A DNA stretch of 64,000 nt from Bacillota bacterium. GTDB taxonomy: Bacteria > Bacillota > Clostridia > Christensenellales > CAG-138. Under the pieces are notes generated by a model. That model saw only the letters and a list, made by a program, of their open reading frames with translations. It did no database searches and was not told the DNA's origin. The stretch covers positions 106 through 64,105 of the forward strand of contig JAEWUO010000012.1 of the NCBI GenBank assembly GCA_023459335.1, written 5' to 3'. Shown in pieces: positions 565 through 54,356 of the stretch. Positions within the stretch are counted from its first letter, which is position 1. Every line of letters begins with the position of its first letter. A program made the translations under genes and the position numbers.

Positions 565-1917
565 AAATCTCCAATAAGGCAGCCTATATTTAATTGGGTC
601 TAATTGAGTTATTCCTAATAAATAATCACTTAAAAATCCAACACTACTTCCTCGCCCCGGCTCTATAATAGAACCACACGCAAGAATAGTTTTAAAAATT
701 TCCCTTAGTGTATTAAAATAAGAAACCAAAGTTACGTTTAATTTATCCGAAATAAATAATATTACCTCAGCTTCAGTTTCCAATCTCTTTAAATATTCTT
801 CATTATTTAATCCCTTTTTATTTAATTGAATTAAACAATTATTAACCCAATAACGTTCTTGAGGATTATCACTTTGAATTAATTTTTCTAAGGCGTGATA
901 AGAACCAATAACCATATAATCACTAAGATTAGCTTTTGGATAGTCTTCGACATCTCTAGTTGGTATATTTTGAGGCTTACTTAATGAGTAGTTTTCTATT
1001 TTCTCATATATCTCCATTGAATTATTACAAAACTCAATAAATTCTTCTTCTGTAAATAGATTTTTAAAATAGGTATTGTAGCACTCTTCGTTATCCATTA
1101 GGTAAGTAGAAGAATAAAAATCATCAACTTCTCTTTCACCATCTTTGGAGTTTAAATAAGCTTTATGAATAGGCTTATCTTCTTTTGTTGCATAATGAGC
1201 GTCAGTTCCAATAACGATTTTTAAGTTTCGACTTTTCGCATATCTAAAGGCGGCTTTATTATATTCTATTTGATCTTTTGTATTGCCAGGAGCAATCTCT
1301 ATGTAAAAATCTTCTCCAAACAATTTTACAAAGAAACTAATCCTCTCATCAATTTCTTTTAGTTTTAATTCTTTTTCTTCTACTTTATTTTCTCTTACTA
1401 ATTTTATATACTCTAATAATAATTGAGAAAAGACAGAACCTAAACAAGCTGATGTGCAAATTAAAGAACCCTTATATTCTTCTACAACAGCCTCTAGTTC
1501 AGAGTACAGAGTTGGTACTCTTCTCATTTTTCCTCTTGAGGCATTATAACTTAGAAGCCAAGCAATAGAGCTAAGTTTTTTCAAAGCCTCGTAACCATCG
1601 GCATTTTTAGCAATAAGAATTAAGTGATAATATTTAATACTCTCTCTGGTTCTCTTTTCAATACAGTAAATTTCATTTCCTATTGCACACTTGAAATCTT
1701 CTGAAATTTCACCTTTTTTCTTTAATTCTTTTTCATTTTTCTTAAAGACTACGCTCCCGGATAGGCATTCATGATTTGTTAAACAACAACCGCTTAGTCC
1801 TAATTTATAAGCGGTTGCAATTAACTTTTTACTAGTATTTATAGAGTCTAATAGTCTAATATTTGAATATTCATCATGCATATGAATTTCAAATCTTTTA
1901 ATTTTATTTAAATCCAT
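565..1917 (-). CDS. dnaE: DNA polymerase III alpha (DnaE-like), exon 1 with PHP domain
   Basis: HMHDEYSNIRLLDS...LTNHE are PHP motifs. GRGSSVGFLSDYLLGITQLDPIKY resembles the DnaE motif GRGSAAGSLVAYxLGITxxDP. The exon end is approximate. Confidence 0.75.
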
Positions 1918-1936
1918 CAGAACCCCTCTTTCGTTT

Positions 1937-2140
1937 TTATTGATATATTCTAACTACCTTTACAGCATACCACTCCTCAACTATTTCACCCTTCTGTTTC
2001 TTTTGTTTCTTTGTAGATTGATATGAGCCAACAATATATTCTTTTGATTTCTTTTCTTCCTCAATCAAAGCTTTTGCTTGCTCCTCTGTATCAACAATAT
2101 ATTCCATTGTTGATTTTAGTAATTCTGCTCCCATTATCAT
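1937..2140 (-). CDS. hypothetical protein
   Basis: 67-aa ORF between a promoter (2182-2210) and the polymerase gene; no recognisable motifs. Confidence 0.4.
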   Translation of the reverse strand: MIMGAELLKSTMEYIVDTEEQAKALIEEEKKSKEYIVGSYQSTKKQKKQKGEIVEEWYAVKVVRIYQ

Positions 2141-2181
2141 GTTACATTCTCCTTTAATAATTATTTTTACTTTCTATATTA

Positions 2182-2210
2182 ATTATACCATAGCTTTCAA
2201 CTAAAGTCAA
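2182..2210 (-). promoter_or_regulatory. phage consensus promoter (TTGACT-17-TATAAT; TTAATATAGAAAGTAAAA downstream variant)
   Basis: Reverse complement of 2205-2210 is TTGACT and of 2182-2187 is TATAAT; spacer is 17 bp. Confidence 0.7.
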
Positions 2211-3986
2211 CTAAAAACTATCGCTAATAAACTCAAAAAATTCTACTTCTTTCATTAAAATTTGCGGCGAAAATACACCCATAAAATTATTAATACTACA
2301 AGTACCTATAATTGAAATTTTCACTTGTTCAAACTTACAAATTTCATCATATTCTTCTTCAGAAAAGAATTTTATAAAGTCAACAGAATTATGTTTAAAA
2401 ATATATGTTCCTTTTGATCTTAATTTTATTTCTTTTGGATTTATTATAATATCTTTTATATGAATTATTGGCTCTGGATTTCCTTGTCCCCATAAGAGAC
2501 TATGTTCGCATATATTAAAAATTATATTAAATAAATTATCTTCATTGTTAAAAGAAAAATCAACTTCATAGAAATTCGTTTTAAAATCAATATCTTTTAA
2601 TTTTTCATTTGCATATTTGGTGAGTTTTTCCAAATTTGATGTTTTTATGGAAAAACCCGCAGCGGCGGCGTGCCCCTCAACATATTCCATTAGTTTGCTA
2701 TCTAACAAAAATTCTCTAAAGTTTTTTAATTCATTGTTATCACAATTTCTAATAGAGCCACTTAATACTCCATTATTTTCTCTACCTAATAATGTTGGAA
2801 TTCTAGTTTCCGCACAAATTCCCATTGCACATAATCCCGTTATTGAGCGAGGGCAAGATAATTCATTTCCATTGAGTATTAAAATTTTATTCTCGTCAAG
2901 ACAATTTTCTACAATTTGTATTTTTAGTTGCTCTATGGCTTTCTCTTTTTCTCTATTTTGCTTATTTTTACAGTTAATGCAATTTCTGGCATTTTGCTCA
3001 CCAACCGTTTCTACTTCATCTTCAGCTGCGCCTCTTTTATTGCTAATAATACTTTCCTCACCATTAATAAAGGCTTGCAACAAAAAATCTTTTTGTTCCA
3101 TAGTTCCAACTCTAATTAATCCATTTATTAGAGGTGTGATATAAAAAGCAATTGTTAATGGGGTTAGATTTCCCTTAGTTGAAAATTCTTGAGCTTTCAA
3201 CAGGGCCGCAAAACCACTGTTGCGAATATGTTTTAAACCGTATTTAATAATATAAGCGTTCTCTGGAACCACAATTTGCATCATATCAGAGATTATTGAA
3301 AGTGCCGCCAAGTCTATAAACTCTCCAGCATTGACAGAGAGTTCTTCATAATCTAGAGCCTGAATAAATTTTAATACAACGCCGCCGCCGCTAAGATGAG
3401 GATTTTCATATTGCCCATCAGTACAATTTACAATAACAGCATCTTCATATTGTTCTATATCTGGAATTAATTTATCATTTATGATATGATGGTCTAAAAC
3501 TAATATATCTATTCCGTGCTCTTTTAAGATTTTATGATATTTTATATCATTACTTCCAGCGTCTGGAAGTATAACCAAATTAAATTGTTCATCAATTATT
3601 TCTAAATAGTGACTCTCTAATCCATGGGCTTTACTTTCGTGAATTTTATAAGAAACCTCTCTGTCATAAAAATTTTTTATAAGATTAATCATCATTGCGG
3701 CCGAACATAATCCGTCGGCATCACTATCTTTAATTACAACAATTTTAGAATTATTTTCGATATGTTTTTTAAATAAATTAACTGCTCTTTTCATATTTTT
3801 CATTGTAAAGGGATCTGGACAACATTCAACTCTATCTTGAGGATTGTTTACTAATTCGTATTCACCTAAGTCTTTTATTAAACCTCTAGCCTTCATTAAG
3901 TTGAAGGATATATTGTTTTCCTTATTTTTGATTATTTGCTCATTTTCTTCTTGGGTATATTTTACTTTTACTTTCATCGAAGTCAC
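2211..3986 (-). CDS. recJ: RecJ-like DHH/DHHA1 single-strand DNA exonuclease
   Basis: DSDADGLCSA, LPDAGSND, LVLDHH (DHH motif) and GHAAAAGFS (DHHA1 motif). Confidence 0.8.
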   Translation of the reverse strand: MTSMKVKVKYTQEENEQIIKNKENNISFNLMKARGLIKDLGEYELVNNPQDRVECCPDPFTMKNMKRAVNLFKKHIENNSKIVVIKDSDADGLCSAAMMINLIKNFYDREVSYKIHESKAHGLESHYLEIIDEQFNLVILPDAGSNDIKYHKILKEHGIDILVLDHHIINDKLIPDIEQYEDAVIVNCTDGQYENPHLSGGGVVLKFIQALDYEELSVNAGEFIDLAALSIISDMMQIVVPENAYIIKYGLKHIRNSGFAALLKAQEFSTKGNLTPLTIAFYITPLINGLIRVGTMEQKDFLLQAFINGEESIISNKRGAAEDEVETVGEQNARNCINCKNKQNREKEKAIEQLKIQIVENCLDENKILILNGNELSCPRSITGLCAMGICAETRIPTLLGRENNGVLSGSIRNCDNNELKNFREFLLDSKLMEYVEGHAAAAGFSIKTSNLEKLTKYANEKLKDIDFKTNFYEVDFSFNNEDNLFNIIFNICEHSLLWGQGNPEPIIHIKDIIINPKEIKLRSKGTYIFKHNSVDFIKFFSEEEYDEICKFEQVKISIIGTCSINNFMGVFSPQILMKEVEFFEFISDSF

Positions 3987-12876: not shown

Positions 12877-12950
12877 AATTAATTACCTTCCTTTTCGCCA
12901 CTATGGGCGTTATTTTATTTTTTTGTTAAGTAGTTATGCTACTCAACTAA

Positions 12951-13020
12951 GCTAATACTTGGAATCGAACCAAGAACCAATGCTTACAAGGCATTTGTTT
13001 TACCACTAAACTATATTAGC
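12951..13020 (-). tRNA. tRNA-Thr (UGU)
   Basis: Manual cloverleaf: acceptor GCTAATA/TATTAGC, anticodon arm AATGC-CTTGTAA-GCATT, T arm CTTGG-TTCGATT-CCAAG. Confidence 0.85.
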
Positions 13021-20005: not shown

Positions 20006-20221
20006 TTAATGTCCCCCTCCATTATGCATGGAATTAATTCGACACTCACTCTCTATACTTTCAACACGAGAATTTAAAGTGCAAATCTTTTCTTCAATTG
20101 ATTTATTCTTTTGAATAATTAATTCTAACTCCATTTTTGAAACTGAATTTTTTTCAAGTTTATCTAAACTTTTAGACATCGCCTGTAGATTAGATAACAA
20201 TTCTTGATCTTTCTTACCTTC
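20006..20221 (-). CDS. small lysis-cassette protein, predicted exon 2 (coiled-coil tail)
   Basis: Open frame EGKKDQELLSNLQ...NGGGH begins directly after the predicted 3' splice site. Its stop lies 1 nt before the amidase ATG. Confidence 0.45.
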   Translation of the reverse strand, partial: EGKKDQELLSNLQAMSKSLDKLEKNSVSKMELELIIQKNKSIEEKICTLNSRVESIESECRINSMHNGGGH

Positions 20222-20285
20222 CTGTTATGTTATTCAATTATTCGTTAGATAATTAAAGAACTGCTTATTTAATAAGCTATAAAGG

Positions 20286-21368
20286 TTAACAGAATCCTCT
20301 TGAGACTATATTGCGAGCCGCATTAATGTCTCGATCTAATTCCAAACTACAACTACACTTGTAAACTCTATCTTTTAATGTCAATTCAAGGTTTCTCTTT
20401 CCACATCTTGAACAATCCATTGAAGTATATGCTGGATTAACTTTAATGAAAATTCTTCCAAATTTCTTACATTTCCACTCTAAGGCTATTATAAACATAC
20501 CTAGTGGAGCAATAATTCTTAATCTTCGACGATTTTTATTTGACATTAAAATTTTACCATTTGTTAAATCTTCAATAGCAATATTATTTTCTATTGCTAA
20601 TTGAGTAGTTGTTTGTTCTATAAAATCTTTCTTTAAATTTTCTAATCTAAAATAAGCTTTGTCAAGTTTTTCTTTCAATTTCTGATAATTGTTTGAACCT
20701 TTGGTTTTCTTGCTTAATTTAGACTTTAAAGAATTAATTCTATAAAATTGTCTAAGAACAGTTCTTGGATAGTTTATTTTAATTCCATTTGATGTCGTCA
20801 TGAAATCTTTTATTCCCCAATCAAGACCTAATTGATTTTCTGTTTTTTCTAATGGTTCAATATTTACTTCACAAGAACCGCTAATATACCATTTTCCATA
20901 GGAGCAAGTATATCTTGGCTCTGTTATTGTTTTAATATTGTATTTGTTTAGAAATGTCATATCAATTGGACACTTTCTTCCTTTTTTAACACCAGAAAGA
21001 TTAATTGTATTGTCATCATTTATTTTAATTGTTTGACTAGCAATACAGAATGATTGTTTATTTGGATTATATTTGTGAAATTTTGGCGGTCTCCCGTTCT
21101 TGTTGTAAACTCTTTTCCAAGTTTGAGAATATTTCTTTGCAATATCATTATATATTCTTTTTGGAATATCTTCTCTAATGAATTCCTTCATTAAATCTTG
21201 AGGAGAAGAACCTTTGATGCTATATGTTCCACATATAATTTTTTCTCCAGAGTTTTTATATTTTTCAACAACATAATTCCACATTTCATGAGAACACTTA
21301 CAGAAGTAAAATAATTTTTCTTCTTGTTCTTTGTTTGGATAGATTCTGACTTTGAATCCTATTTTCAT
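20286..21368 (-). CDS. tnpB: TnpB (IS200/IS605-family OrfB, RuvC-like RNA-guided nuclease)
   Basis: LGLDWGIKDF, IAIEDLT and DRDINAARNI form the RuvC triad. Zn ribbon CSRCGKR...YKCSC. NPAYTS motif present. Confidence 0.85.
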   Translation of the reverse strand: MKIGFKVRIYPNKEQEEKLFYFCKCSHEMWNYVVEKYKNSGEKIICGTYSIKGSSPQDLMKEFIREDIPKRIYNDIAKKYSQTWKRVYNKNGRPPKFHKYNPNKQSFCIASQTIKINDDNTINLSGVKKGRKCPIDMTFLNKYNIKTITEPRYTCSYGKWYISGSCEVNIEPLEKTENQLGLDWGIKDFMTTSNGIKINYPRTVLRQFYRINSLKSKLSKKTKGSNNYQKLKEKLDKAYFRLENLKKDFIEQTTTQLAIENNIAIEDLTNGKILMSNKNRRRLRIIAPLGMFIIALEWKCKKFGRIFIKVNPAYTSMDCSRCGKRNLELTLKDRVYKCSCSLELDRDINAARNIVSRGFC

Positions 21369-21390
21369 TTATATCACCTCCTTTTAATTA

Positions 21391-21419
21391 ATTATACCAC
21401 AAAATTAATTAAAAGTCAA
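21391..21419 (-). promoter_or_regulatory. phage consensus promoter driving tnpB (inside the intron)
   Basis: TTGACT-17-TATAAT with extended TGTGG, followed by the RBS AAAGGAGGTG. Confidence 0.65.
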
Positions 21420-21779
21420 TAGGTGAATGTTCTCTTAACCTCTCGGCTAAGCACAGGTCATATCACAATCTTTCTTTTAGTAATTAAAAGTTAAGATTCC
21501 CTCCGCTACCTAGACTACTAGGATACATGACCGTCGAACTTTACTCATATTACCTAAGATAACTTAGAGTCTTAGCTGCTGATTATCTCTACCTAATAAT
21601 TTTTAAACATTCACACTTGAAATTTCTTTCTATGTTGTAGTTTATTAGTCTAATAAGATTTTCCAGCAATTCAAAGGGTTTTCGACATACATTTCTGTAT
21701 GAAGTGACTATTTCCTTAATTATATTAAAATATATTAATGCAGTCTATAGCGAAACGCATATATGATAATTAAGTTCTA

Positions 21780-21887
21780 ATCATAAGATTTTTTGCCAAG
21801 TGCATTTTTGACATTGAATATTGTAACCAGCATACCTATTAAAGTTGCTGATGTAGAAATTATTAAAGTTAGTAAATTAGTAGACAT
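21780..21887 (-). CDS. small lysis-cassette protein, predicted exon 1 (single TM helix)
   Basis: MSTNLLTLIISTSATLIGMLVTIFNVKNALGKKSYD with GGAGG upstream. The start codon choice is uncertain because an overlapping 5-codon ORF uses the better-spaced ATG. Confidence 0.4.
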
Positions 21888-21984: not shown

Positions 21985-22263
21985 TCAATCACTCTCCCCT
22001 TCCTTATCGTCTACAGCAGTAGTTGTTTTTATTGTTGGATTATCTATAACTATTGTATCCGTTTTATAAAAAATAAAGAATAGTAGAAAAATTACAATAA
22101 TTGTTATACAAATCGTTCTACACATTGTTATTTTGAATTTTTCCACACTCCTTGTATTTTTTTCACTTAAATTGTCTTTAGTAATTTCAATTAAAGTATT
22201 ATTGATTTTACATAAAGTTTCCAATGTTTCTTGGGCTAATTGGAGTTCTTTTTCAGTTGCCAT
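21985..22263 (-). CDS. small membrane protein
   Basis: TM segment ICITIIVIFLLFFIFY. Lies within the lysis cassette. Confidence 0.5.
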   Translation of the reverse strand: MATEKELQLAQETLETLCKINNTLIEITKDNLSEKNTRSVEKFKITMCRTICITIIVIFLLFFIFYKTDTIVIDNPTIKTTTAVDDKEGESD

Positions 22264-33785: not shown

Positions 33786-35753
33786 GCAGTAGGATTAGCA
33801 GATTACATTATATGGTCTTATTATTTTTGGAAGAATGATAAGGCAAGTGGATTATTTTGGAAAAAAGAAGATGGTGAGTTTATTGACATCTCTGAAAAAG
33901 CACTAAGACAAAGTTTTCAGAAGATTTGTTATAGACTGAACCAGCCCTTCCTACGCATTGATCAATCAGCATTTACCAATTTTTCTGTTTTTGATAGGTC
34001 TTACTTAGTAGAATTATTTGGTACAAAGGTGTTTCCAAATGGAGAACTCGGCATCACAATGATAGAAGGGTTTTTAGAACACCAAAAAATATTTTTAGAA
34101 GAGTTTTCTAGAATTAAAGGTGAAAATCTCTTTGGTTTTCCAGTTGTAACAATTTCATTGTTATATCAAGATGGGAAATTTGTTGACGAAGATTTTTCCA
34201 GATGGGCTTGTGAACACAATAGAAAATGGAATGATAGTAATCTATTTATTTCTGGTGAACTTGGGATTTTGAGTTCTTGTCCTTTAGATGGTGATACGGA
34301 GATCGTCTATTGGGGAGATAGACTAAAAAGATTTTTCTTGTCATCAATAGAAGACGTTTATAATAATCATAGTAGAGATGGTAAAATACCGTTAATAAAA
34401 ACTTTTTCAAATGGACAAATTATAAACTGTAGAATAAACAAATTTGATATCGCTCCAGAATATGAAATTACTTTAGCAAATAACGCAAAAATTAGAACCA
34501 CTGCAGATCATTTAAATAAAGTTTATGGAAGAGATTATGTTAGAACAAAAGAATTAACAACTGATGATTTTCTTCCTTATGGATTAAATAAATATATTGG
34601 TAGCGATAGTTTATCTTACGAAGAAGGTAAAATTGTTGGGGCTTTTCTAGGGGATGGCTCTTTTATAGAAAATGGGATTGTTCTAAGTCTAAATTCAAAT
34701 ACAGATAGAGATTTTATGGATTGGTTACATGACTATGTTCCAAAATATTTTGGAGGAAAATGTATAGAGGATGAAAAAACCTCAACTATTAGTGGGGAAA
34801 AAAGTTGTATTAATTTTAGAATTATTTCAAAATATTTAAAAGGATTAATAGAACAATGTGTTTTAGGAAAAAACGCTTTAACAAAGGAAATCAACTTGAT
34901 AGTATTAAATTATTCCGAACAATTTAGACAAGGATTAATAGATGGATGGCAAACTGCTGATGGTGGAAACAATAATAGAATTTATTCTTCCTCTAAAAAA
35001 CTTATAGATACAATGGTTGTTGTTTTTACTAGTTTAGGAATTGTAACTAGGATTGATGAAGATAATAGAGAAAGTAGACTTGGGAAAAATACTTGTTACA
35101 CTTTACGATTTTACACTCCAAATAAAAAGAAAATAAAAGATCTTTATATAGCAGAAGAAGATGTTCTGTGGATAAAAATTAAATCTATCACAAGATGTAG
35201 TAGTAAAAAAAGAAAATCTTATTGTTTAGAAGTATTGGATGATGTGGAGCCAGTATTTACACTAGGGAATGGTATTATTACACATAATTGCCGCGTCACT
35301 AACGATACCAAGCAAATGCCGGCGTTCATTAACTCAATAGGAGGAACAGCATTATCAATTGGTTCTGTAAAAGTTAATACTATTAACCTAAAGAGAATTG
35401 CCATAGAAAGCGGCGGCGATAAGGATAAATTTATGGAAATTCTTGAGAAAAGAATGATATTAGTGATGAAAGTTCTCAAAATTGTAAGAAGAATTATAAC
35501 TAGAAATATAGAAAAAGGGCTTTTAACTAACTATGTTGATGGTTGTATTGATATGGAGAAACAGTTTTGTACAATAGGTATTAATGCAATGTACGAAGCT
35601 ATAAATTATTTTAAACTAATCAAAACCGATGAATTTGGTTATAAATCTTATTCTGATGAAGGACTAGTTTTTGCGGCAAATATTTTAGATAAAATGAACA
35701 AATTGAAAGATGAATTTCCAGTAGATTATCAACAAAATATAGAATGTATCCCT
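33786..35753 (+). CDS. nrdD: NrdD exon 2 (includes an intein)
   Basis: AVGLADYIIWSYYFW..., SAFTNFSVFD, ...GILSS|intein|CRVTND..., ends NIECIP (cct, U last). Confidence 0.75.
34278..35288 (+). mobile_element. Intein (337 aa, class 1, LAGLIDADG endonuclease domain) in NrdD
   Basis: Begins CPLDGDTEIVY and ends GNGIITHN|C. IVGAFLGDGSF and GLIDGWQTADGG motifs. Confidence 0.8.
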
Positions 35754-36099
35754 AAAAGAACTGGGGCGTAGTAGTGTAAGCTACTAATGAAAACTTTCTC
35801 TGATTGACTTGGAAAACCTGAGTGGTTGACAGGGCGGAAGGATATATTATAGTCCACCGTGAACGACTAAGTGAGAAAGCGTCTTAAAAAGATGATGCGA
35901 TAGTCTGAACTCTACTGTAACATCAAAGTAGAGAGTAAAGTTTAACGACTTTACCGCCATATGTAAATATAATTATAGGAGAAATAGATTATTATTAATA
36001 ATATAAAAAATTCCAGCAGTAAAATAATTGGTGAGGTTATAAATAAATATAATATTGAATTTAATCAACCAGAACGTATGGTCATAAAGTAACAGATTG
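35754..36099 (+). mobile_element. Group I intron 2 of nrdD (ORF-less, 346 nt)
   Basis: Lies between ...ECIP and GETCAKIFCKKDF (NrdD consensus iPaEs..k.a.kD). Last nt is G. Contains GATAGTC and AACGACT boxes. Confidence 0.65.
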
Positions 36100-36264
36100 G
36101 GTGAAACCTGTGCAAAAATATTTTGTAAGAAAGATTTTCTACTCTATGGAGAAGAGAATAGTGTTCCTGTGTATTCAAACCAATGGATACCACTAGTGGA
36201 ACGCTGCTCAATAAAAGAAAAGTTAAGACTTGGAGCACTTTTAGATAAGAAGTGCGGTGGTGGT
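36100..36264 (+). CDS. nrdD: NrdD exon 3 (55 codons)
   Basis: GETCAKIFCKKDFLLYGEENSVPVYSNQWIPLVERCSIKEKLRLGALLDKKCGGG. Too short to appear in the ORF track. Confidence 0.65.
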
Positions 36265-37266
36265 TTAAGATAATTTGGCTACCATAGTAAATTTAGTGAA
36301 CGCTACCAAGCGGTGTCTTTATTAATTTGAAGGCTAACGGGGGACGTTATTTACCAATCCCGTGCTGAGCTCCATAGAATAAGTTCTAAGGAGAAAGTGT
36401 AACGACTATCGGTGATGAGTGTAACCGAGTACAAGTAGAGATAAGTACTATTTGGAAGTGCGTAACTAGAGGGTGGAGTTTTCTACTGTCTAGAAGATAT
36501 AGTCTAATTAAAGGAGAATTTTGAATGAACTGTAAACAATGTGGAAAAGAAATTCCAAAAACAAATCAATTTAATATTAATTATAATGGAGAAAAAATTG
36601 TTGTGTGTGGTAAACACTATGCACAATATCTAAAATATAATCATTTTTTAGATAGTAATCAAAAAACTTGTTTTGATAGAAATGAGTATGAGATTACTGA
36701 AGACGGGGTATGGATATATACTTTTAATAGAAATCAAGAGGTGTCTGGTAAATTCTTGATTGATGAAGAAGATTTAGAAAGAGTTATTATTCATAAGTGG
36801 AGATTTTGGAAAAATACCTTTTATACTGGGACATATAATCCAGTTTCAATCCATAAATTTTTACTAAATACGCCGGCGGATAAAGTAGTTGATCATATAA
36901 ATGGAAATAGAAGCGATAATCGTAAAGAGAATTTACGAATTTGTTCTCAACACCAAAACGCAATAAACAGGAGTTTATTAAATAAAAATAAGAGCGGCGT
37001 TGCTGGTGTGTATTTTGACAAAATAAGAAGTAAATGGTTAGCTGAAATAAAATTTAATTATGTTAAATGTTTCTTAGGGCGTTTTTCTGAATTTGCTGAT
37101 GCTGTTTTTGTTAGATATTATGCTGAACAAAAGCTCTTTGGAGAGTTTAGAAATACAAGAAATGATTGTAACATTATCCAAATTGTAAATGATTGTAAAA
37201 ATAAAGAAGATTTGAAAAGTAAAATTGATTTGAAATTACAGGAAAAATTTAAAATTCAAGATTAAG
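36265..37266 (+). mobile_element. Group I intron 3 of nrdD with HNH-AP2 ORF
   Basis: Exon 3 ends GGT. G at 37266 precedes CAA ATT ACT CAC (QITHINID). GGCTAACGGGGG box. The ORF stop is 1 nt from the 3' splice site. Confidence 0.65.
36525..37265 (+). CDS. HNH homing endonuclease with AP2-like DNA-binding domain
   Basis: VVDHINGNRSDNRKENLR..HQN (HNH). SGVAGVYFDKIRSKWLAEI (AP2-like). Confidence 0.8.
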   Translation: MNCKQCGKEIPKTNQFNINYNGEKIVVCGKHYAQYLKYNHFLDSNQKTCFDRNEYEITEDGVWIYTFNRNQEVSGKFLIDEEDLERVIIHKWRFWKNTFYTGTYNPVSIHKFLLNTPADKVVDHINGNRSDNRKENLRICSQHQNAINRSLLNKNKSGVAGVYFDKIRSKWLAEIKFNYVKCFLGRFSEFADAVFVRYYAEQKLFGEFRNTRNDCNIIQIVNDCKNKEDLKSKIDLKLQEKFKIQD

Positions 37267-37554
37267 CAAATTACTCACATAAACATAGATAAACCATTCT
37301 CAACACCAGAGCAAGCATGGAGAATGCTCAATACTGTGGCTGAAAGCGGAGTTATTTACTTTGCATTTAATACAGTAATGAGTGAATGCAAAAACAAGCA
37401 CGTATACTATGGCGATATTTGTCCAGAGTGTGGTTGTCCAACATTAGAGCAATATACTAGAATTGTTGGATTTATAACACCAATAAGAACATGGAGCAAA
37501 GAGAGAAGAGAAGAGTTCCCAAAAAGGAATTTCTTTGTGAGTGAAAATCTATAG
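37267..37554 (+). CDS. nrdD: NrdD exon 4 (Zn site and glycyl-radical domain)
   Basis: QITHINID...GVIYFAFN...CKNKH..CPECG...TRIVGFITPIRTWSKERREE. Confidence 0.75.
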   Translation, partial: QITHINIDKPFSTPEQAWRMLNTVAESGVIYFAFNTVMSECKNKHVYYGDICPECGCPTLEQYTRIVGFITPIRTWSKERREEFPKRNFFVSENL

Positions 37555-39502: not shown

Positions 39503-39850
39503 TTGAATTATAATCATGATAGTATAGTTTCTTTGGGGGCAGGTAGAGCCTTTAGAGAAAAGTTAGGAATGTATCTCTCAGCAGATAAACAAGAAGCTAT
39601 CAATCTTGGATTAAGGGAATTAATAGTAAATGTCCAAGATGAATTTGAGGTATATAAACCAAAAGATCCCACTCTAAAGATTTCTTTAAATACAAATTTA
39701 AGAGAAATCATCGTAGAAGATAACATGAGAGGAATTCCGTGTGGCGTTAGAACCGATGGAATGAACTCTCTTACTGCGGCGTTTATGATACCACATAGCG
39801 GAGGCAAACATTCCGAGGGGGCTTATTCAAGTGCCATAGGAATCAACGGT
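39503..39850 (+). CDS. type IIA topoisomerase subunit B (GyrB/ParE-like), exon 1 (GHKL ATPase start)
   Basis: LRELIVNVQDE (GHKL N-box-like), EDNMRGIP, HSGGK...AIGING. Exon ends in T. Confidence 0.7.
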
Positions 39851-40748
39851 TAGAGTATCCTGAGCCGTTGTAAAAGGACTTTAATTGCTGGAAGAATCTT
39901 AGAGCCTAATAAACTACAACATAAAGAGCGATCTTAAGTGTGAACGTTTGAAAATTATTAGGATTGACTAATCAGCATCGAAGCATCTAATAAATTTCCA
40001 TTGATAAAAAAAGGGGGAAAGTAAAATGACCTGAATTTTATCTTGTGGAGCAGAAATTTTAATAGATACTGAAGATTTTAATAAAATTGATAAAAAAGGT
40101 TGGTATTTATCTCAAGGAACTCATGATAACAACAATAGAAGAAAAACTAAATATGTCCTACATGATGATTATGGCAGATTACATAGGCATATTTTAGGGC
40201 TAAATCTAAATGAACGAAAAGATTTAGTTGTTGATCATATTGATAGAAATGGGTTGAATAACCAAAAAAATAATCTACGAATAGTAGATACATCAATAAA
40301 TAAAAAAAATCAAAGTACAATAAAAAATAACCAATTAAATTTTAATGGCATAAGCTTAGAGTATAATAAAAAAGCTGATTATTTTAGATTTAAAGTTTCA
40401 TATAATGAGATTAAGTACAAACCAAAAACTAAAACTTTCTCTTTTGGAAGTTACGATAATCCTCAAGAAGCTTTAAAGGCAGCTATTTTATTTAGAATAG
40501 AAAAAATGAAAGAAAATGGTTATTTATTAGATGAACGTTCAACGACTATTGAAAATGAATTAATTAATAATGTCAATATTAATATAGAGCAGATATTAAA
40601 TATTGATTTAAAAAAATTAATCATGAGTAAAGTAGGCTCAAGCGAGTCGAAATGGGTCTTAGAAAAGATATAGTCTAAACTCTATAGAATATATAGAGCA
40701 GCACGTAATGGTGCGGGATTGGAGTAGCGAACCAATTTGAAATGTTTG
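39851..40748 (+). mobile_element. Group I intron 1 of the gyrB-like gene with HNH-AP2 ORF
   Basis: The flanks rejoin as AIGING|EGAKIVN (consensus GxHGVGAsvVN). The intron ends in G. Its 5' part is homologous to the IStron ribozyme module. Confidence 0.7.
40026..40673 (+). CDS. HNH-AP2 homing endonuclease ORF with an in-frame TGA at codon 3
   Basis: Strong RBS AAGGGGGAAA, then ATG ACC TGA ATT..., with the frame open from 40035 to 40673. LVVDHIDRNGLNNQKNNLR (HNH) lies upstream of the first conventional start at 40254. Confidence 0.6.
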
Positions 40749-41867
40749 GAAGGAGCAAAAATTGTCAATCACACAGCGAAGTGGTTAGAAGTTCAAGTTA
40801 AAAGAGAAGGAAAAATTCATTTCCAAAGATTTGAATCTAATGACGAGGGAGCATTCTCAGTTACCGAAGTTGAAATAAAGGGGAATACAAACGAAACGGG
40901 AACAATGATTAAATACGTACCAGACTCTAAGGTTTATGGCGATGCTTTTATAAACATTGAAACCTTAAAAGAGATGTTGAAAGAGATGTCTTATTTTACC
41001 AAAGGATTAAAAATAATCCTAAGTGTGGATGAAGAATATGTTATAACTTTCTATTCTAAGAATGGATTAATTGATGGTTTATCTGGACAAAACCCTCTTT
41101 CAAAACCATTCCATTTTCTTTATGAAACTGAAGATTGTAAAGTTGAATTAGCCTTACAATGGGTTGCAAAGGGCGGGCAAATCAAAGGCTATGCCAATGG
41201 ACTTCATATGAGAGATGGCGGTGCTTTTATGTCTGGGTTTAAATCTTCTTTAACTAGAAGCTTTAACTCTTTAATGAAAAAGAAATTTGGTGGCGACCAA
41301 ATTAGAAGTATGTTAGATGGATTTGTTTCAGTTAAGGTTAGAATGGGGGAATTCTCAAATCAAGCTAAAACTGCTTTAGCAAATGCTGAGGCTAGAACAG
41401 CAACCTCAGCGGCAATATCTCAATTATTAAAAGAATACTATGAATCTAATCAAGGTGTTTTAAATACGGTTGCTGAAATATTAACAAAATATGAAAAAGC
41501 AGAAAAGGCGGCCGAAAAAGCCAGAGAAGAAGTTCTTAATATTAATAAGGAAATCACCAAAAAAAGAAAGCAGAAAATTGTTGCTTCTGATAAATTAAAA
41601 GATGCTGAGGTTCTTGGGCAAGATTCAATTTTATTGGTTGTGGAAGGTGATTCGGCGGGTCAAGCCGCTTTATTAGCAAGAGATACTAAAAAGTATGGTG
41701 TCTTAATGGCACAAGGAAAGTTTCTTAACTCTTGTGAAAAAGAAGAAGAAAAGGTTTTAAAAAATAAAATTGTTGAAAGATTAATCCTAGCATTAGGACT
41801 AAATGTTGGGAATTATAATCCAAAAACCCTAAGGTATGGAAAAGTTGGAATTTTTGTTGACGCAGAT
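40749..41867 (+). CDS. type IIA topoisomerase subunit B-like, exon 2 (transducer plus Toprim start)
   Basis: EGAKIVN...; LLVVEGDSAG (Toprim EGDSA); ends IFVDAD. Confidence 0.75.
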
Positions 41868-42738
41868 GAATAACATTGTCTGGAAATGCTTTTGCTCTAT
41901 TTGGAGCGGTCTATTTTAAAATAGGCTAACGGTATCAGAGAAATAAGACCTCCTATTGGAACTACAAGAGATAATAGGAATAATCTAAGGACGAATAATC
42001 TGACTAAGAAACCCTAAACCTGAAAATGGTGAGATAAAGGGAATACCGTACCAATCGTAAATTATTCCTCTTTAAAAGAGGTGATAAATATTTTCAAAGT
42101 ATATTGTATAACCAATTTAATTAATAATCATAAATATATAGGAATAACTTCACGTTCATTAGAAATAAGATTTTCAGAACATTGTTGCCATCCTCGTACT
42201 TTAATTTATTATGCAGTTAAAAAGTATGGAAAAGAAAATTTTATAATAGAACTAATTGAAGATAATGTGCCTAATGATTTAATAGATGAAAAAGAAAGAT
42301 ATTATATTAATAAATATAATACCTTAAAACCCAATGGATACAATTTATCAACAGGCGGGATTAGTAATAAAGGTGTTAATGAAGAAACAAGACAACATCT
42401 TAAAGAAATTAATTTAGGTATTAATAATCCTCGTTGTAATAAATATATTTTACAATACGATTTAAGTAATAATTTTATTGCAAAATATGGCTCAGCAAGA
42501 GAAGCTGGACGTGCATTGGGTAATGAAAATAAACGTGGAGCAATCTTAAATTGCTTAAATAAAAAAACAAAAACTTCACAAGGTTATATTTGGAAATATG
42601 AGGAATAATTAAGCGAAGGGTGTATCGACTATCCTCGTGAAGGGGAGTACCTATACTATTAATATGTATTGGGAAAGAGCATTCTCTCATTAGAGAGTAA
42701 AATATAGTCAGACCCAAGTTGAAAAATTGGATAAGTCG
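41868..42738 (+). mobile_element. Group I intron 2 of the gyrB-like gene with GIY-YIG ORF
   Basis: The flanks rejoin as DAD|DDGSHI (consensus DADvDGsHI). U is at the exon end and G at the intron end. The 3' part is homologous to nrdD intron 1. GGCTAACGG box present. Confidence 0.7.
42081..42608 (+). CDS. GIY-YIG homing endonuclease
   Basis: VYCITNLINNHKYIGIT..IRFSEH..YGKENF..KERYYI. Confidence 0.8.
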   Translation: MINIFKVYCITNLINNHKYIGITSRSLEIRFSEHCCHPRTLIYYAVKKYGKENFIIELIEDNVPNDLIDEKERYYINKYNTLKPNGYNLSTGGISNKGVNEETRQHLKEINLGINNPRCNKYILQYDLSNNFIAKYGSAREAGRALGNENKRGAILNCLNKKTKTSQGYIWKYEE

Positions 42739-52954: not shown

Positions 52955-53026
52955 GGAGTTGTAGTCTAATGGTAGGACGCTCGCTTTGGGAGCGAGAAGG
53001 TCACAGTTCAAGTCTGTGCAATTCCA
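52955..53026 (+). tRNA. tRNA-Pro (UGG)
   Basis: Acceptor GGAGTTG/CAATTCC, anticodon arm CTCGC-TTTGGGA-GCGAG, T arm CACAG-TTCAAGT-CTGTG. Confidence 0.85.
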
Positions 53027-53197
53027 TACAGTTAACATAAGACATTTCAGCAACATTTGAACTTTTCTGTTAAAAAAGTATTCAAATGTCTAGCACAACT
53101 AACTGTAACCCATTGTTAGCCTAATCGCAGTTACGCTAACATAACTTGAAACATCAGATAAAAAATTAAGTTAGAATTAAAGCTTAAAAACAACATT

Positions 53198-53276
53198 TAG
53201 ACACATCAGCTACTTAAAAACAAGTTAAAGTTTAACTATTAAGTATGGTAAAAGGAAATTAAAGAGAGTGTCTAGA
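53198..53276 (+). ncRNA. spacer hairpin element b (AGACACATCAGC...GTGTCTAG)
   Basis: The conserved 5' box pairs with the conserved 3' box GTGTCT (53267-72). Confidence 0.3.
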
Positions 53277-53507
53277 GTAAAAACCTTCAATTTTCCTTTT
53301 CTTAGTAGTTATTCGATTAATACTCTTCTTTACACCCAAAGAAAGTATTCCTTAATGGTTTCTAGGTTAAAACGACACGCCGTAAGGTTTTTACCATGGT
53401 TAGTCGTCCAATAATCGGAGTTAGGCTCAAATCCTAGAGTAAAATGGTTAGTCTTGCAACTAAACCGGGCTTGGCACTTTCTCGAAAAGAGAAAGCCTAA
53501 CAAAAAA

Positions 53508-53584
53508 GACACGTCAGCCAGTTAAAAAACAAATTATGAATTATTTCTAGTGAGCACTATTTGTAAAACCTTAGTGTCTTGGAA
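53508..53584 (+). ncRNA. spacer hairpin element c (AGACACGTCAGC...GTGTCTTG)
   Basis: The 5' box pairs with GTGTCT (53574-79). Its start lies 120 nt upstream of tRNA-Ile. Confidence 0.3.
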
Positions 53585-53627
53585 TATTAAGTTTTACGTG
53601 CAAGATTTAGTGTTTGCTAAGAAATAT

Positions 53628-53701
53628 AGAAACATAGTTCAGTTGGTTAGAGCACACGTCTGATAAGCGTGAGGTCGATGGTTCGAGTCCATCTGTTTCT
53701 A
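53628..53701 (+). tRNA. tRNA-Ile (GAU)
   Basis: Acceptor AGAAACA/TGTTTCT, anticodon arm CACGT-CTGATAA-GCGTG, T arm GATGG-TTCGAGT-CCATC. Confidence 0.85.
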
Positions 53702-53708
53702 CTTATAT

Positions 53709-53801
53709 GGAGTAATAAGCCTAACGGTAAGGCGGGCGGTTGCTAACCGTTATTAGCCACAAGATCGTGGTGTGTAGGTTCAAGTCCTACTTACTCCGCC
53801 A
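53709..53801 (+). tRNA. tRNA-Ser (GCU), class II, with encoded CCA
   Basis: Acceptor GGAGTAA/TTACTCC, loop TTGCTAA, long variable arm, T arm GTAGG-TTCAAGT-CCTAC, G-CCA tail. Confidence 0.85.
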
Positions 53802-53804
53802 AAT

Positions 53805-53875
53805 GCGATTATCGTATAATGGTAGTACTCCCGTTTTCCAAACTGGTAGTCTGGGTTCAAATCCCAGTAGTCGCT
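53805..53875 (+). tRNA. tRNA-Gly (UCC)
   Basis: Acceptor GCGATTA/TAGTCGC. Anticodon arm CCCGT-TTTCCAA-ACTGG has one C:T mismatch. T arm CTGGG-TTCAAAT-CCCAG. Confidence 0.75.
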
Positions 53876-53917
53876 TAATCACTTTATTGTGATAACCTCC
53901 TAAGACAATATACATAA

Positions 53918-53998
53918 AGGCACATCAGCAATCTTAATTCTTTTAATTGAAAAGAATATAATTACAACTTGCGGTACGATAAGCTTGCGTGCCTAGAA
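53918..53998 (+). ncRNA. spacer hairpin element d (AGGCACATCAGC...GTGCCTAG)
   Basis: The 5' box pairs with GTGCCT (53989-94), with compensatory changes relative to elements b and c. Its start lies 121 nt upstream of tRNA-Ala. Confidence 0.3.
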
Positions 53999-54038
53999 TC
54001 GCTTATCTACAAGGGCTGTCAAGATTGTAATTATATTT

Positions 54039-54111
54039 GGGGAAATAGCTCAGCTGGTAGAGCACTTGGTTTGCAACCAAGCGGTCGAGAGTTCAATTCT
54101 CTCTTTCTCCA
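54039..54111 (+). tRNA. tRNA-Ala (UGC)
   Basis: Acceptor GGGGAAA/TTTCTCC, anticodon arm CTTGG-TTTGCAA-CCAAG, T arm GAGAG-TTCAATT-CTCTC. Confidence 0.85.
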
Positions 54112-54118
54112 CTTATAC

Positions 54119-54190
54119 TGCGGCGTAGAGAAACGGTATCTCATCAGACTCATTATCTGAAAATAGTTGGTTCGACTCCAGCCGCCGCAA
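54119..54190 (+). tRNA. tRNA-Met/Ile2 (CAU) with U at position 37
   Basis: Acceptor TGCGGCG/CGCCGCA, anticodon arm TCAGA-CTCATTA-TCTGA, T arm GTTGG-TTCGACT-CCAGC. Confidence 0.75.
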
Positions 54191-54284
54191 TAAATTTGAG
54201 GATTAGTCTATACATTGTAATGTGTTGCAATTGCTGTAAGTAAAGCAGCTAATTTGCGATCGTTGGCTATTGCTCAAATTAAAA

Positions 54285-54356
54285 GACCCCTTAGTCAAGC
54301 GGTTAAGACGACGCACTTTCTATGCGTAAACAGGAGTTCGACTCTCCTAGGGGTTA
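54285..54356 (+). tRNA. tRNA-Glu (UUC) with U at position 37
   Basis: Acceptor GACCCCT/AGGGGTT, anticodon arm ACGCA-CTTTCTA-TGCGT, T arm AGGAG-TTCGACT-CTCCT. Confidence 0.75.

Follow-up and report, generated by a model that had tools for sequence, protein, structure and literature searches.

IStrons have been known since 2000, and a 2014 survey that included C. botulinum phages noted related stand-alone introns of subgroup IA2 (PMC4227781). Those of group A combine an IA2 intron with an IS200/IS605 insertion sequence (IS), are inserted after TTGAT, ATTAT or TTTAT and end in TCAG (PMC4227781). It has further been reported that the cargo of IStron-related introns is either TnpB or a homing endonuclease and has been gained and lost repeatedly among close introns, that the IStron ribozyme matches the ribozyme of Twort, that omega RNA and 3' splice site overlap, and that IStrons and free-standing introns reside together in C. 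difficile 630 (10.1101/2023.11.20.567912). For the C. botulinum IStron, splicing and guide production are described as competing on a single transcript. Here we analyse two elements found in a 64-kb stretch of contig JAEWUO010000012.1 (the window, to which all positions refer). Element A, on the plus strand, lies in a gyrB/parE-like gene and bears an HNH-AP2-like homing endonuclease gene (HEG); element B, on the minus strand, lies in a small lysis-cassette gene and bears tnpB. Based on the observations set out below, we are confident that these are two independent mobile IA2 introns of the Twort/phiKZ type, one HEG-bearing and one an IStron, and that the 110-nt likeness between them is the family-conserved P4-P6 domain and not the trace of an exchange.

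The likeness is confined to one module, present at two places (strand and basis are given with each feature; in what follows a slash separates the two strands of a helix or the two sides of a junction):

39880..39990, plus strand: shared module copy in A, comprising J3/4-P4-P5-P4'-start of P6 (blastn, alignment, RNAalifold covariation)
21564..21674, minus strand: shared module copy in B (blastn)

A sequence-only reading of this DNA had aligned 39880-39975 (plus) with 21585-21690 (minus) at about 80% identity. Blastn of the elements against the window bears this out, with 81.4% identity over 113 columns between 39880-39990 (plus) and 21674-21564 (minus) at E=1.4e-21; MAFFT agrees, and blastn finds no third copy of the module within the 64 kb. 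By position and sequence its parts can be named: J3/4 (AAU), P4 (UGCUGG/UCAGCA), P5 with a three-way extension, P4' and the start of P6. The same reading had proposed a structural alignment with a check for covariation in P1-P2 and the core; core helices do covary, and P1-P2 differ between A and B. When 13 homologues are aligned, the predicted fold consists of P4 and P5b, and 11 of its 17 pairs show double changes (RNAalifold); P4, for example, passes from UGCUGG/UCAGCA to CGCCGG/UCGGCG or UGCUUG/UAAGCA, and AAGA-GCGA-UCUU in A corresponds to GAAA-GAAA-UUUC in B. When P3, P4, P6, P7, P9 and P9.2 are specified by hand they pair in nearly every member checked, despite differing sequences; a single phiKZ P9 row fails the check, owing to a bulged T left in the strand, and for the ORF-less introns (those without an open reading frame, ORF) L002c and L010 no convincing P3 could be assigned. 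The shared stretch is structured RNA, namely the J3/4-P4-P5-P6 domain of subgroup IA2 phage group I introns.

How widely is this domain distributed? An exact 18-mer from it (CTAATAAACTACAACATA) is present in ten IMG/VR contigs, in introns whose cargo is varied: an HNH/NUMOD-like ORF within a ribonucleotide reductase gene (L001), a GIY-YIG ORF (L008/L009), no ORF at all (L002/3/7/10) or tnpB (L004-L006). Megablast of both regions against the phage collection returned no match. Sensitive blastn of the B ribozyme against annotated phages returned 184 records with 70-80% identity over the module domain, among them phiKZ-like phages (79-80%), the nrdE gene of Staphylococcus phage Twort (77.7%), Bacillus, Lactococcus, Aeromonas and Serratia phages, and crAss-like phages. 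The Twort match is nrdE intron 2, which encodes the HNH endonuclease I-TwoI (AF485080); together with the ORF-less phiKZ intron (PHIKZ179/PHIKZ178) it shares the IA2 architecture and the P4-P6 of A and B, and in it, as in A, the ribosome-binding site and ORF of the HEG follow directly after the module.

Each of the two elements has closer matches elsewhere than in the other. Over the module A is 88.7% identical to L010 and 84.3% to L002/L003/L007, the B module matches L002/L003/L007 at 84.8%, and over its whole length B matches L004 at 83%. A distance tree built from a 103-column alignment of the module does not place A next to B; in that alignment A is 81% identical to Twort and 68% to phiKZ. 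Because of these closer relatives and the separate places in the tree, we read the 81% identity of A and B as the family background of the catalytic core. Outside the module the two differ in P1-P2, distal P6, the P7 sequence, P7.1/P7.2, P8 and P9.1, and their cargo occupies different sites: the HEG of A sits in the loop of P6, which a helix of 12 bp (39984-95/40522-33) closes, and the tnpB cassette of B lies between P9 and P9.2. A shared segment, ATGAGTAAAGT (about 40623 in A, about 21550 in B), had been taken as the 3' strand of P6 in both; this is wrong for A, where that strand is at 40522-33 and J6/7-P7 at 40537-48, within the HEG coding region. The sequence-only reading was right that both elements begin with TAGA after an exon-terminal T (39850/39851 in A, 21780/21779 in B) and that both 3' exons begin with GAAGG (40749 and 20221). 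The GAAGG match looks coincidental, since other B-type copies precede ATTGAC (L004/L013) and ACAATC (L024).

Element A and its host gene are laid out as follows:

39503..39850, plus strand: exon 1 of the gyrB/parE-like type II topoisomerase ATPase gene (ORF, joined-protein alignment, Pfam)
39851..40748, plus strand: element A, a predicted group IA2 intron (Twort nrdE-I2/phiKZ type) whose P6 loop holds an HNH-AP2-like ORF (helices)
40026..40673, plus strand: HNH-AP2-like homing endonuclease frame (sequence; Pfam AP2 and HNH_3; alignment to 36525-37265)
40749..41867, plus strand: exon 2 of the gyrB/parE-like gene, ending where the next intron begins (ORF, joined-protein alignment)

The protein obtained by joining the two exons aligns with ParE (4urn) without a gap at the junction (GING/EGAKIVN against GLHG/VGASVVN; E=6.6e-31), the gene matches Pfam DNA_gyraseB at 6e-26, and the insertion point is in its ATP-lid region. 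The predicted ligated junction reads ...AACGGT/GAAGGAGC.... P1 (39845-50/39864-69, AACGGU/GCCGUU) has a U.G pair at the splice site, and the terminal G is at 40748. Between them we located P3 (39877-81/40654-58), P4 (39886-91/39972-77), P5/P5a/P5b (39895-39965), P6 (39984-95/40522-33, 12 bp), P7 (40544-48/40671-75), P7.2 (40635-48), P9 (40680-98), P9.1 (40701-14) and P9.2 (40717-37). Introns of Bacillus AR9/PBS1, Aeromonas and phi92-like phages resemble the 3' part of A at 77-81% identity, and P9.1 (GCACGUAAUGGUGC) and the P9.2 loop AGUAGCGAA (GUAACGA-like) match phiKZ and Twort. Element A differs from the Twort and phiKZ introns in its gyrB/parE site, in an HEG of HNH-AP2 type with an early TGA, in the lack of a recognisable P8 and in a long P7.1 region that also encodes the HEG C-terminus. 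The same host gene holds a second group I intron (41868-42738, plus strand), which splits the Toprim motif (DAD/DDGSHI), bears a GIY-YIG/NUMOD ORF (42081-42608) and has a P4-P6 that is not of the A/B type.

The HEG starts with an ATG at 40026 after a good Shine-Dalgarno sequence (GGGGGA), and its frame is open from 40035 to a TAG at 40671-73, inside J8/7-P7'. Its C-terminal coding region doubles as J6/7, P7, P7.1, P7.2 and P3'. Pfam matches fall below the gathering cut-offs (AP2, 2.5e-4, 21.7 bits against 33.3; HNH_3, 3.8e-3, 17.3 bits against 24.8), and the protein is 28% identical to the HNH-AP2 ORF at 36525-37265 (aligned segment VVDHIDRNGLNNQKNNLR); IMG/VR holds no relatives of it.

Element B, read on the minus strand, comprises more parts:

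21780..21887, minus strand: exon 1 of a gene for a 107-aa membrane-anchored coiled-coil protein, located shortly before the endolysin (ORF; P0001)
20222..21779, minus strand: element B, a putative IS605-type (group A) IStron of 1558 nt without tnpA (IStron-free contigs; L004)
21434..21779, minus strand: IA2 ribozyme part of B, P1 to P9, 346 nt (located helices)
21391..21419, minus strand: putative internal sigma-70-type promoter, TTGACT-17-TATAAT with TG (best promoter match in the region, 11/12)
20286..21368, minus strand: tnpB, 360 aa (Pfam, ISDra2 TnpB alignment)
20222..20327, minus strand: omega-RNA-like scaffold, P9.2-like hairpin and tail (RNAalifold)
20006..20221, minus strand: exon 2 of the 107-aa gene (ORF; IStron-free alleles)

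The ends of B are fixed by natural alleles. Joining the upstream 36-aa ORF to the downstream 64-aa ORF predicts a 107-aa protein, and the protein database holds an uninterrupted 107-aa protein, P0001, that is 99% identical. Six IStron-free ENA contigs (L024-L029) encode the 107-aa protein beside the same amidase endolysin, and their DNA follows the window as far as 21780/21781 and rejoins it at 20221. Because their homology breaks at 21780/21779 and at 20222/20221, the length of 1558 nt and the junction ...GAT/GAAGG... are confirmed, and comparison with these alleles and P0001 indicates that removal of B restores the host reading frame exactly. The predicted ligated junction is ...TTATGAT/GAAGGTAAG.... 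Where the occupied allele has TATGAT, the IStron-free alleles have TACGAT or TATGAC. By its position the 107-aa protein might be holin- or spanin-like; it has no Pfam match, and the joined protein has no relative in IMG/VR.

Within B, the 5' ribozyme shows P1 (21785-80/21767-62), P3 (21678-73/21504-499), P4 (21668-63/21582-77), P5/P5a/P5b (21659-21585), P6 (21570-67/21546-43), P7 (21532-27/21461-56), P7.1 (21522-09), P8 (21498-93/21472-67), J8/7 (21466-60) and P9 (21451-34, with a GAGA loop). The internal guide sequence changes in step with the exons, being AUCAUA for UAUGAU in B and GUUUU for AAGAU in L004. After the putative promoter and before tnpB comes a strong Shine-Dalgarno sequence, AAGGAGGTGAT, at 21383-21373 (minus strand). 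A near-consensus promoter between P9 and tnpB is kept in seven of eight related IStron lineages, L013, L015, L016, L017, L022 and L023 among them. TnpB passes the Pfam cut-offs for Cas12f1-like_TNB (7e-21), OrfB_IS605 (3e-18) and HTH_OrfB_IS605 (9e-8) and aligns with ISDra2 TnpB (8bf8) at E=4e-23; its RuvC residues D/E/D are kept (GLDWGIKDF, IAIEDL, LDRDINAARNI), and its identity with the TnpBs of annotated phage records is only about 30%. Three stem-loops lie across the tnpB stop codon, with 11 compensatory changes among 23 pairs (RNAalifold, 8 homologues), and are also present in the plain IS L014. They are followed by a P9.2-like hairpin at 20254-20236 with the loop UAACGA, whose stems covary, and by a tail (AAUAACAUAACAG) that runs to the terminal G at 20222. 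The tail (...AACAUAACAG) and the loop have homologues in the P9.2 and 3' terminus of phiKZ, Twort and A. In the folding model the omega-RNA-like scaffold overlaps the 3' splice site, and the last hairpin and tail appear to double as P9.2 and 3' splice site.

IS200/IS605-type group A IStrons are built in this way. Described members of that group (CdISt1/CdiIStron of Clostridioides difficile, FnISt1; PMC4227781, 10.1101/2023.11.20.567912) likewise place the IA2 ribozyme 5' and tnpB with the omega RNA 3'. They also have ends that are splice sites, a T-ending TTGAT-like motif, a ...CAG end and omega RNA over the 3' splice site, often miss TnpA, and occur as copies in unrelated genes, often in frame. 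The present copy lies in the lysis cassette of an uncultured phage, whereas the phage IStrons of Tourasse 2014 (PMC4227781) belong to group B and to C. botulinum phages. We found no discussion of a consensus promoter between P9 and tnpB in the IStron papers (PMC4227781, 10.1101/2023.11.20.567912). Plain IS605 tnpB elements (such as ISDra2 and L014) resemble B in TnpB fold and catalytic residues, in a TTGAT-like flank (CTTATGAT/ in L014), in the three omega-RNA stem-loops and in an internal promoter. Unlike B, these elements are without a ribozyme, and L014 has a left-end GC-rich hairpin (GCGCCGGCGC) at its very end and a last loop GUAAUG in place of the intron-type UAACGA.

Is the element mobile as a unit? 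In L004, another viral contig with unrelated flanks, positions 1505-3065 are 83% identical to the whole of B over 1559 nt. Elements whose TnpB is 49-54% identical, from viral contigs (L015-L021) as well as bacterial metagenome-assembled genomes (L022 and L023, one Eubacteriales, one Gastranaerophilales), share the order IA2 ribozyme, promoter, tnpB, stem-loops, ...ACAG, and L014 (TnpB 53%) is a plain IS without ribozyme. Because the whole of B occurs elsewhere at 83% and a ribozyme lies upstream of TnpB relatives at 49-54%, the fusion of tnpB and ribozyme long predates this genome. There is in addition a second, unoccupied target site in the window:

22050..22063, minus strand: unoccupied second target site, AAACGGAT/ACAATAG, junction 22057/22056 (comparison with L024)

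L024, a close relative of the window phage, holds in its positions 1-119 the 3' end of an L004-like IStron at this place, 280 bp upstream in the neighbouring small ORF, and its holin-like site is empty. Since the window and L024 show reverse occupancy, the element has moved recently between ...GAT/ sites of the lysis cassette. The 5' flank of B is TTATGAT (ATGAT), and relatives have TTATGAT, AAGAT, AGAT, CGAT or AAT/ATT; spelled out, the flanks are TCTTATGAT/ (B), TGTTATGAT/ (L022), CTTATGAT/ (L014), GAAGAT/, AGAGAT/, AACGAT/ and TTCGAT/, with AAT/ATT ends in L015/L016. To judge from these sequences, the TTATGAT/NGAT flanks are a TTGAT-like motif of the kind expected for an IS605 TnpB/TnpA. 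The predicted TnpB guide and target would be the first 16-20 nt of exon 2 (GAAGGTAAGAAAGATCAAGA), and the IStron-free allele of L026 carries the identical 20 nt after ...TACGAT. Some further details of the relatives deserve mention. Contig IMGVR_UViG_3300031867_000033 holds both the ribozyme-less L014 and the IStron L016, each with a TnpB 53% identical to that of B, and L016 is closely preceded by a remnant resembling a left end (TTTTATGAT/GTTGCGGCGCATTGTAGATT). In L004/L013 the 5' flank (GAGGGGCAATAATGATGAAGAT/) and the 3' flank (...TTTAGGGGCAAATGATGATATG) hold a similar Shine-Dalgarno-plus-start segment, as if the start region of the target had been duplicated.

A number of observations weigh against our interpretation of the two elements as independent mobile introns. 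In A just 12 nt separate P3' and P7' (40654-40675), which leaves no room for a normal P8; this helix is absent or reduced to a UCUU-AGAA-AAGA hairpin overlapping its neighbours, and a convincing P8 could not be assigned. The unrelated ORF-less L002 intron (reverse-complement position about 3411) has the same layout, which suggests a natural P8-less IA2 variant. Codon 3 of the HEG is an in-frame TGA (40032-40034), so that, taken with the missing room for P8, A may be partly degenerate; the HEG would be either a recent pseudogene or a frame reinitiated at a non-ATG codon. Recoding of TGA was considered and rejected, as long ORFs, among them the gyrB exons and those of 844-914 aa, contain no break under table 11. 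A gives only a weak, partial match to Rfam Intron_gpI (RF00028), at 40602-40696 with 18.5 bits against a gathering score of 50 (model positions 159-251), B gives none even at E<=10, and a scan of the window at gathering score returns tRNAs only. We read this as insensitivity of RF00028 to the IA2 subgroup, because B, homologous by blastn to the validated Twort intron, scores no match to it. P1 of B (21785-21762) pairs the exon-terminal U with A and not in the near-universal U.G, which the L004 copy has; with a U-A pair at the 5' splice site, B may splice inefficiently. B departs from the described group A IStrons also in its TTATGAT/NGAT motif and in its 3' terminus, which is ACAG in all copies and not the reported TCAG. 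Finally, tnpA is absent: there is no ORF between ribozyme and tnpB, and the window contains neither another tnpB-like match nor an obvious transposase. This is compatible with membership of the IStrons, since TnpA-less copies are common in the described family; our interpretation nevertheless provides no route to new sites without tnpA.

Among the alternatives, the one that survives best is older shuffling, in which a tnpB cassette or a P4-P6 domain moved among co-resident IA2 ribozymes by recombination or gene conversion and left B a mosaic, A itself being uninvolved. We regard it as improbable, though well worth bearing in mind. The P4-P6 of B, in what is a short module alignment, is nearer to ORF-less and HEG introns (phiKZ 81%, L002c 83%) than to the ribozymes of the tnpB elements L015-L018 (55-71%), and on this ground we keep in view that ribozyme domains may in the past have been exchanged among members of the IA2 family, a further point that counts against strict independence. 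The P7 of B (GGUC/GACC) and the sequence after P7' match L015/L016 as well as the ORF-less L002c/L010, L010 combines a 5' domain that matches A at 89% with a P7 region like that of B, and the literature reports recurrent cargo gain and loss between closely related introns. Against these points stand the shortness of the alignments, a core that is near saturation at 70-85%, and the behaviour of the ribozyme halves: pairwise identities of the 5' and 3' halves all fall at 71-92% without clear incongruence, and no breakpoint is demonstrated.

It is considerably less likely that B is a mere tnpB insertion that inactivated a small gene, its ribozyme a relic that does not splice. The U-A pair at the 5' splice site, the missing Rfam match and the absence of tnpA would agree with a relic; the core helices P1, P3-P9 and P9.2, however, are all present and covary across copies that are 49-83% related, the insertion keeps the frame exactly, the internal guide sequence tracks the exons in B and L004, and the family is known to splice.

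The sequence-only reading had seen in the pair what looked like an exchange of cargo on one ribozyme chassis within a single genome; spelled out, HNH-AP2 would have been swapped for tnpB, or the reverse, by recombination between the two resident introns. Its observation of an HNH-AP2 gene in one intron and tnpB in the other stands, as does the membership of both in group I and in one structural family; the idea of a shared chassis whose cargo was exchanged here does not, and we consider a recent in-genome swap very unlikely. The P4-P6 domains of A and B are the most alike among the five or more introns of the window, both elements start with TAGA and are flanked by GAAGG, and in the 103-column tree the B domain falls among HEG and ORF-less introns, away from other IStron ribozymes. 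Each element is nevertheless closer to introns in other contigs, the likeness is that of a family-wide domain and ends at its edges, the cargos sit in L6 and P9, respectively, GAAGG is not kept at other B-type sites, a complete B exists elsewhere at 83%, and the TnpB clade is ribozyme-linked down to 49%, so that its fusion to a ribozyme is older. Chance or AT-rich low complexity, the second of which the same reading had named as the finding that would overturn it and for which only the 30% G+C of the window speaks, has practically no probability in the face of E=1e-21, compensatory changes in P4 and P5b and homology to experimentally validated introns.

What would two such introns do in one phage? 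If A self-splices, as we expect, the topoisomerase mRNA would be restored, and A could spread by protein-guided cleavage of intron-less alleles, provided that the HEG is still active. In the case of B, two transcripts may be envisaged. Read-through transcripts of the host gene would contain the whole ribozyme, splice and restore the 107-aa lysis-cassette gene. Transcripts from the internal promoter, if it is used, would be without the ribozyme core and would yield TnpB together with an intact scaffold-plus-guide RNA; they can supply an intact guide precisely because the ribozyme core is missing from them. TnpB and its guide would then cut IStron-free alleles in which GAAGGTAAGAAAGATC comes after a TTGAT-like motif (here TTATGAT), and B would be copied into the cut allele by recombination with an occupied genome. 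We tentatively raise the possibility, to which we give less than even weight, that B acts in this phage lineage as a transposase-free RNA-guided homing intron, in which the promoter parts splicing and guide production onto two transcripts. TnpB would on this proposal cut the IStron-free alleles of co-infecting related phages, and splicing would keep the lysis gene working.

IStrons, their IA2/Twort-like ribozymes and the way in which related introns acquire and lose TnpB and homing endonucleases have all been published, and our observations leave the current picture unchanged. What they add is a well-delimited phage IStron for which metagenome contigs show both empty and occupied alleles, which has a further insertion site 280 bp away and whose putative internal promoter is conserved. 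As B resides in a lysis cassette in the same genome as four or more HEG introns, it offers a convenient comparison of protein-guided and RNA-guided homing in co-infection, and it is equally convenient for asking whether an internal promoter relieves the conflict between splicing and guide RNA.

The window as a whole seems to be part of an uncharacterised AT-rich phage, because the nearest annotated phage by GyrB, the human-gut phage Phass-1, is only 35.5% identical. It carries a cluster of seven tRNA genes at 52955-54356 (plus strand) and one more at 12950-13020 (minus strand). Two further genes are interrupted. A PhoH-like ATPase gene has a group I intron at about 9571-8396 (minus strand; junction GFLPG/DIISKL) with a LAGLIDADG ORF at 9274-8444; since this intron also starts T/TAGA, an in-frame TAG at the intron start is evidently a shared habit. 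An NrdD-like ORF at 34029-37320 (plus strand) contains an intein-like insert (CPLDGD...THNC, with a LAGLIDADG motif). This is followed by one or two group-I-like segments, in which the HNH-AP2 ORF at 36525-37265 comes after J8/7-P7' (36490-36505) and thus occupies the P9 domain, the position that tnpB has in B.

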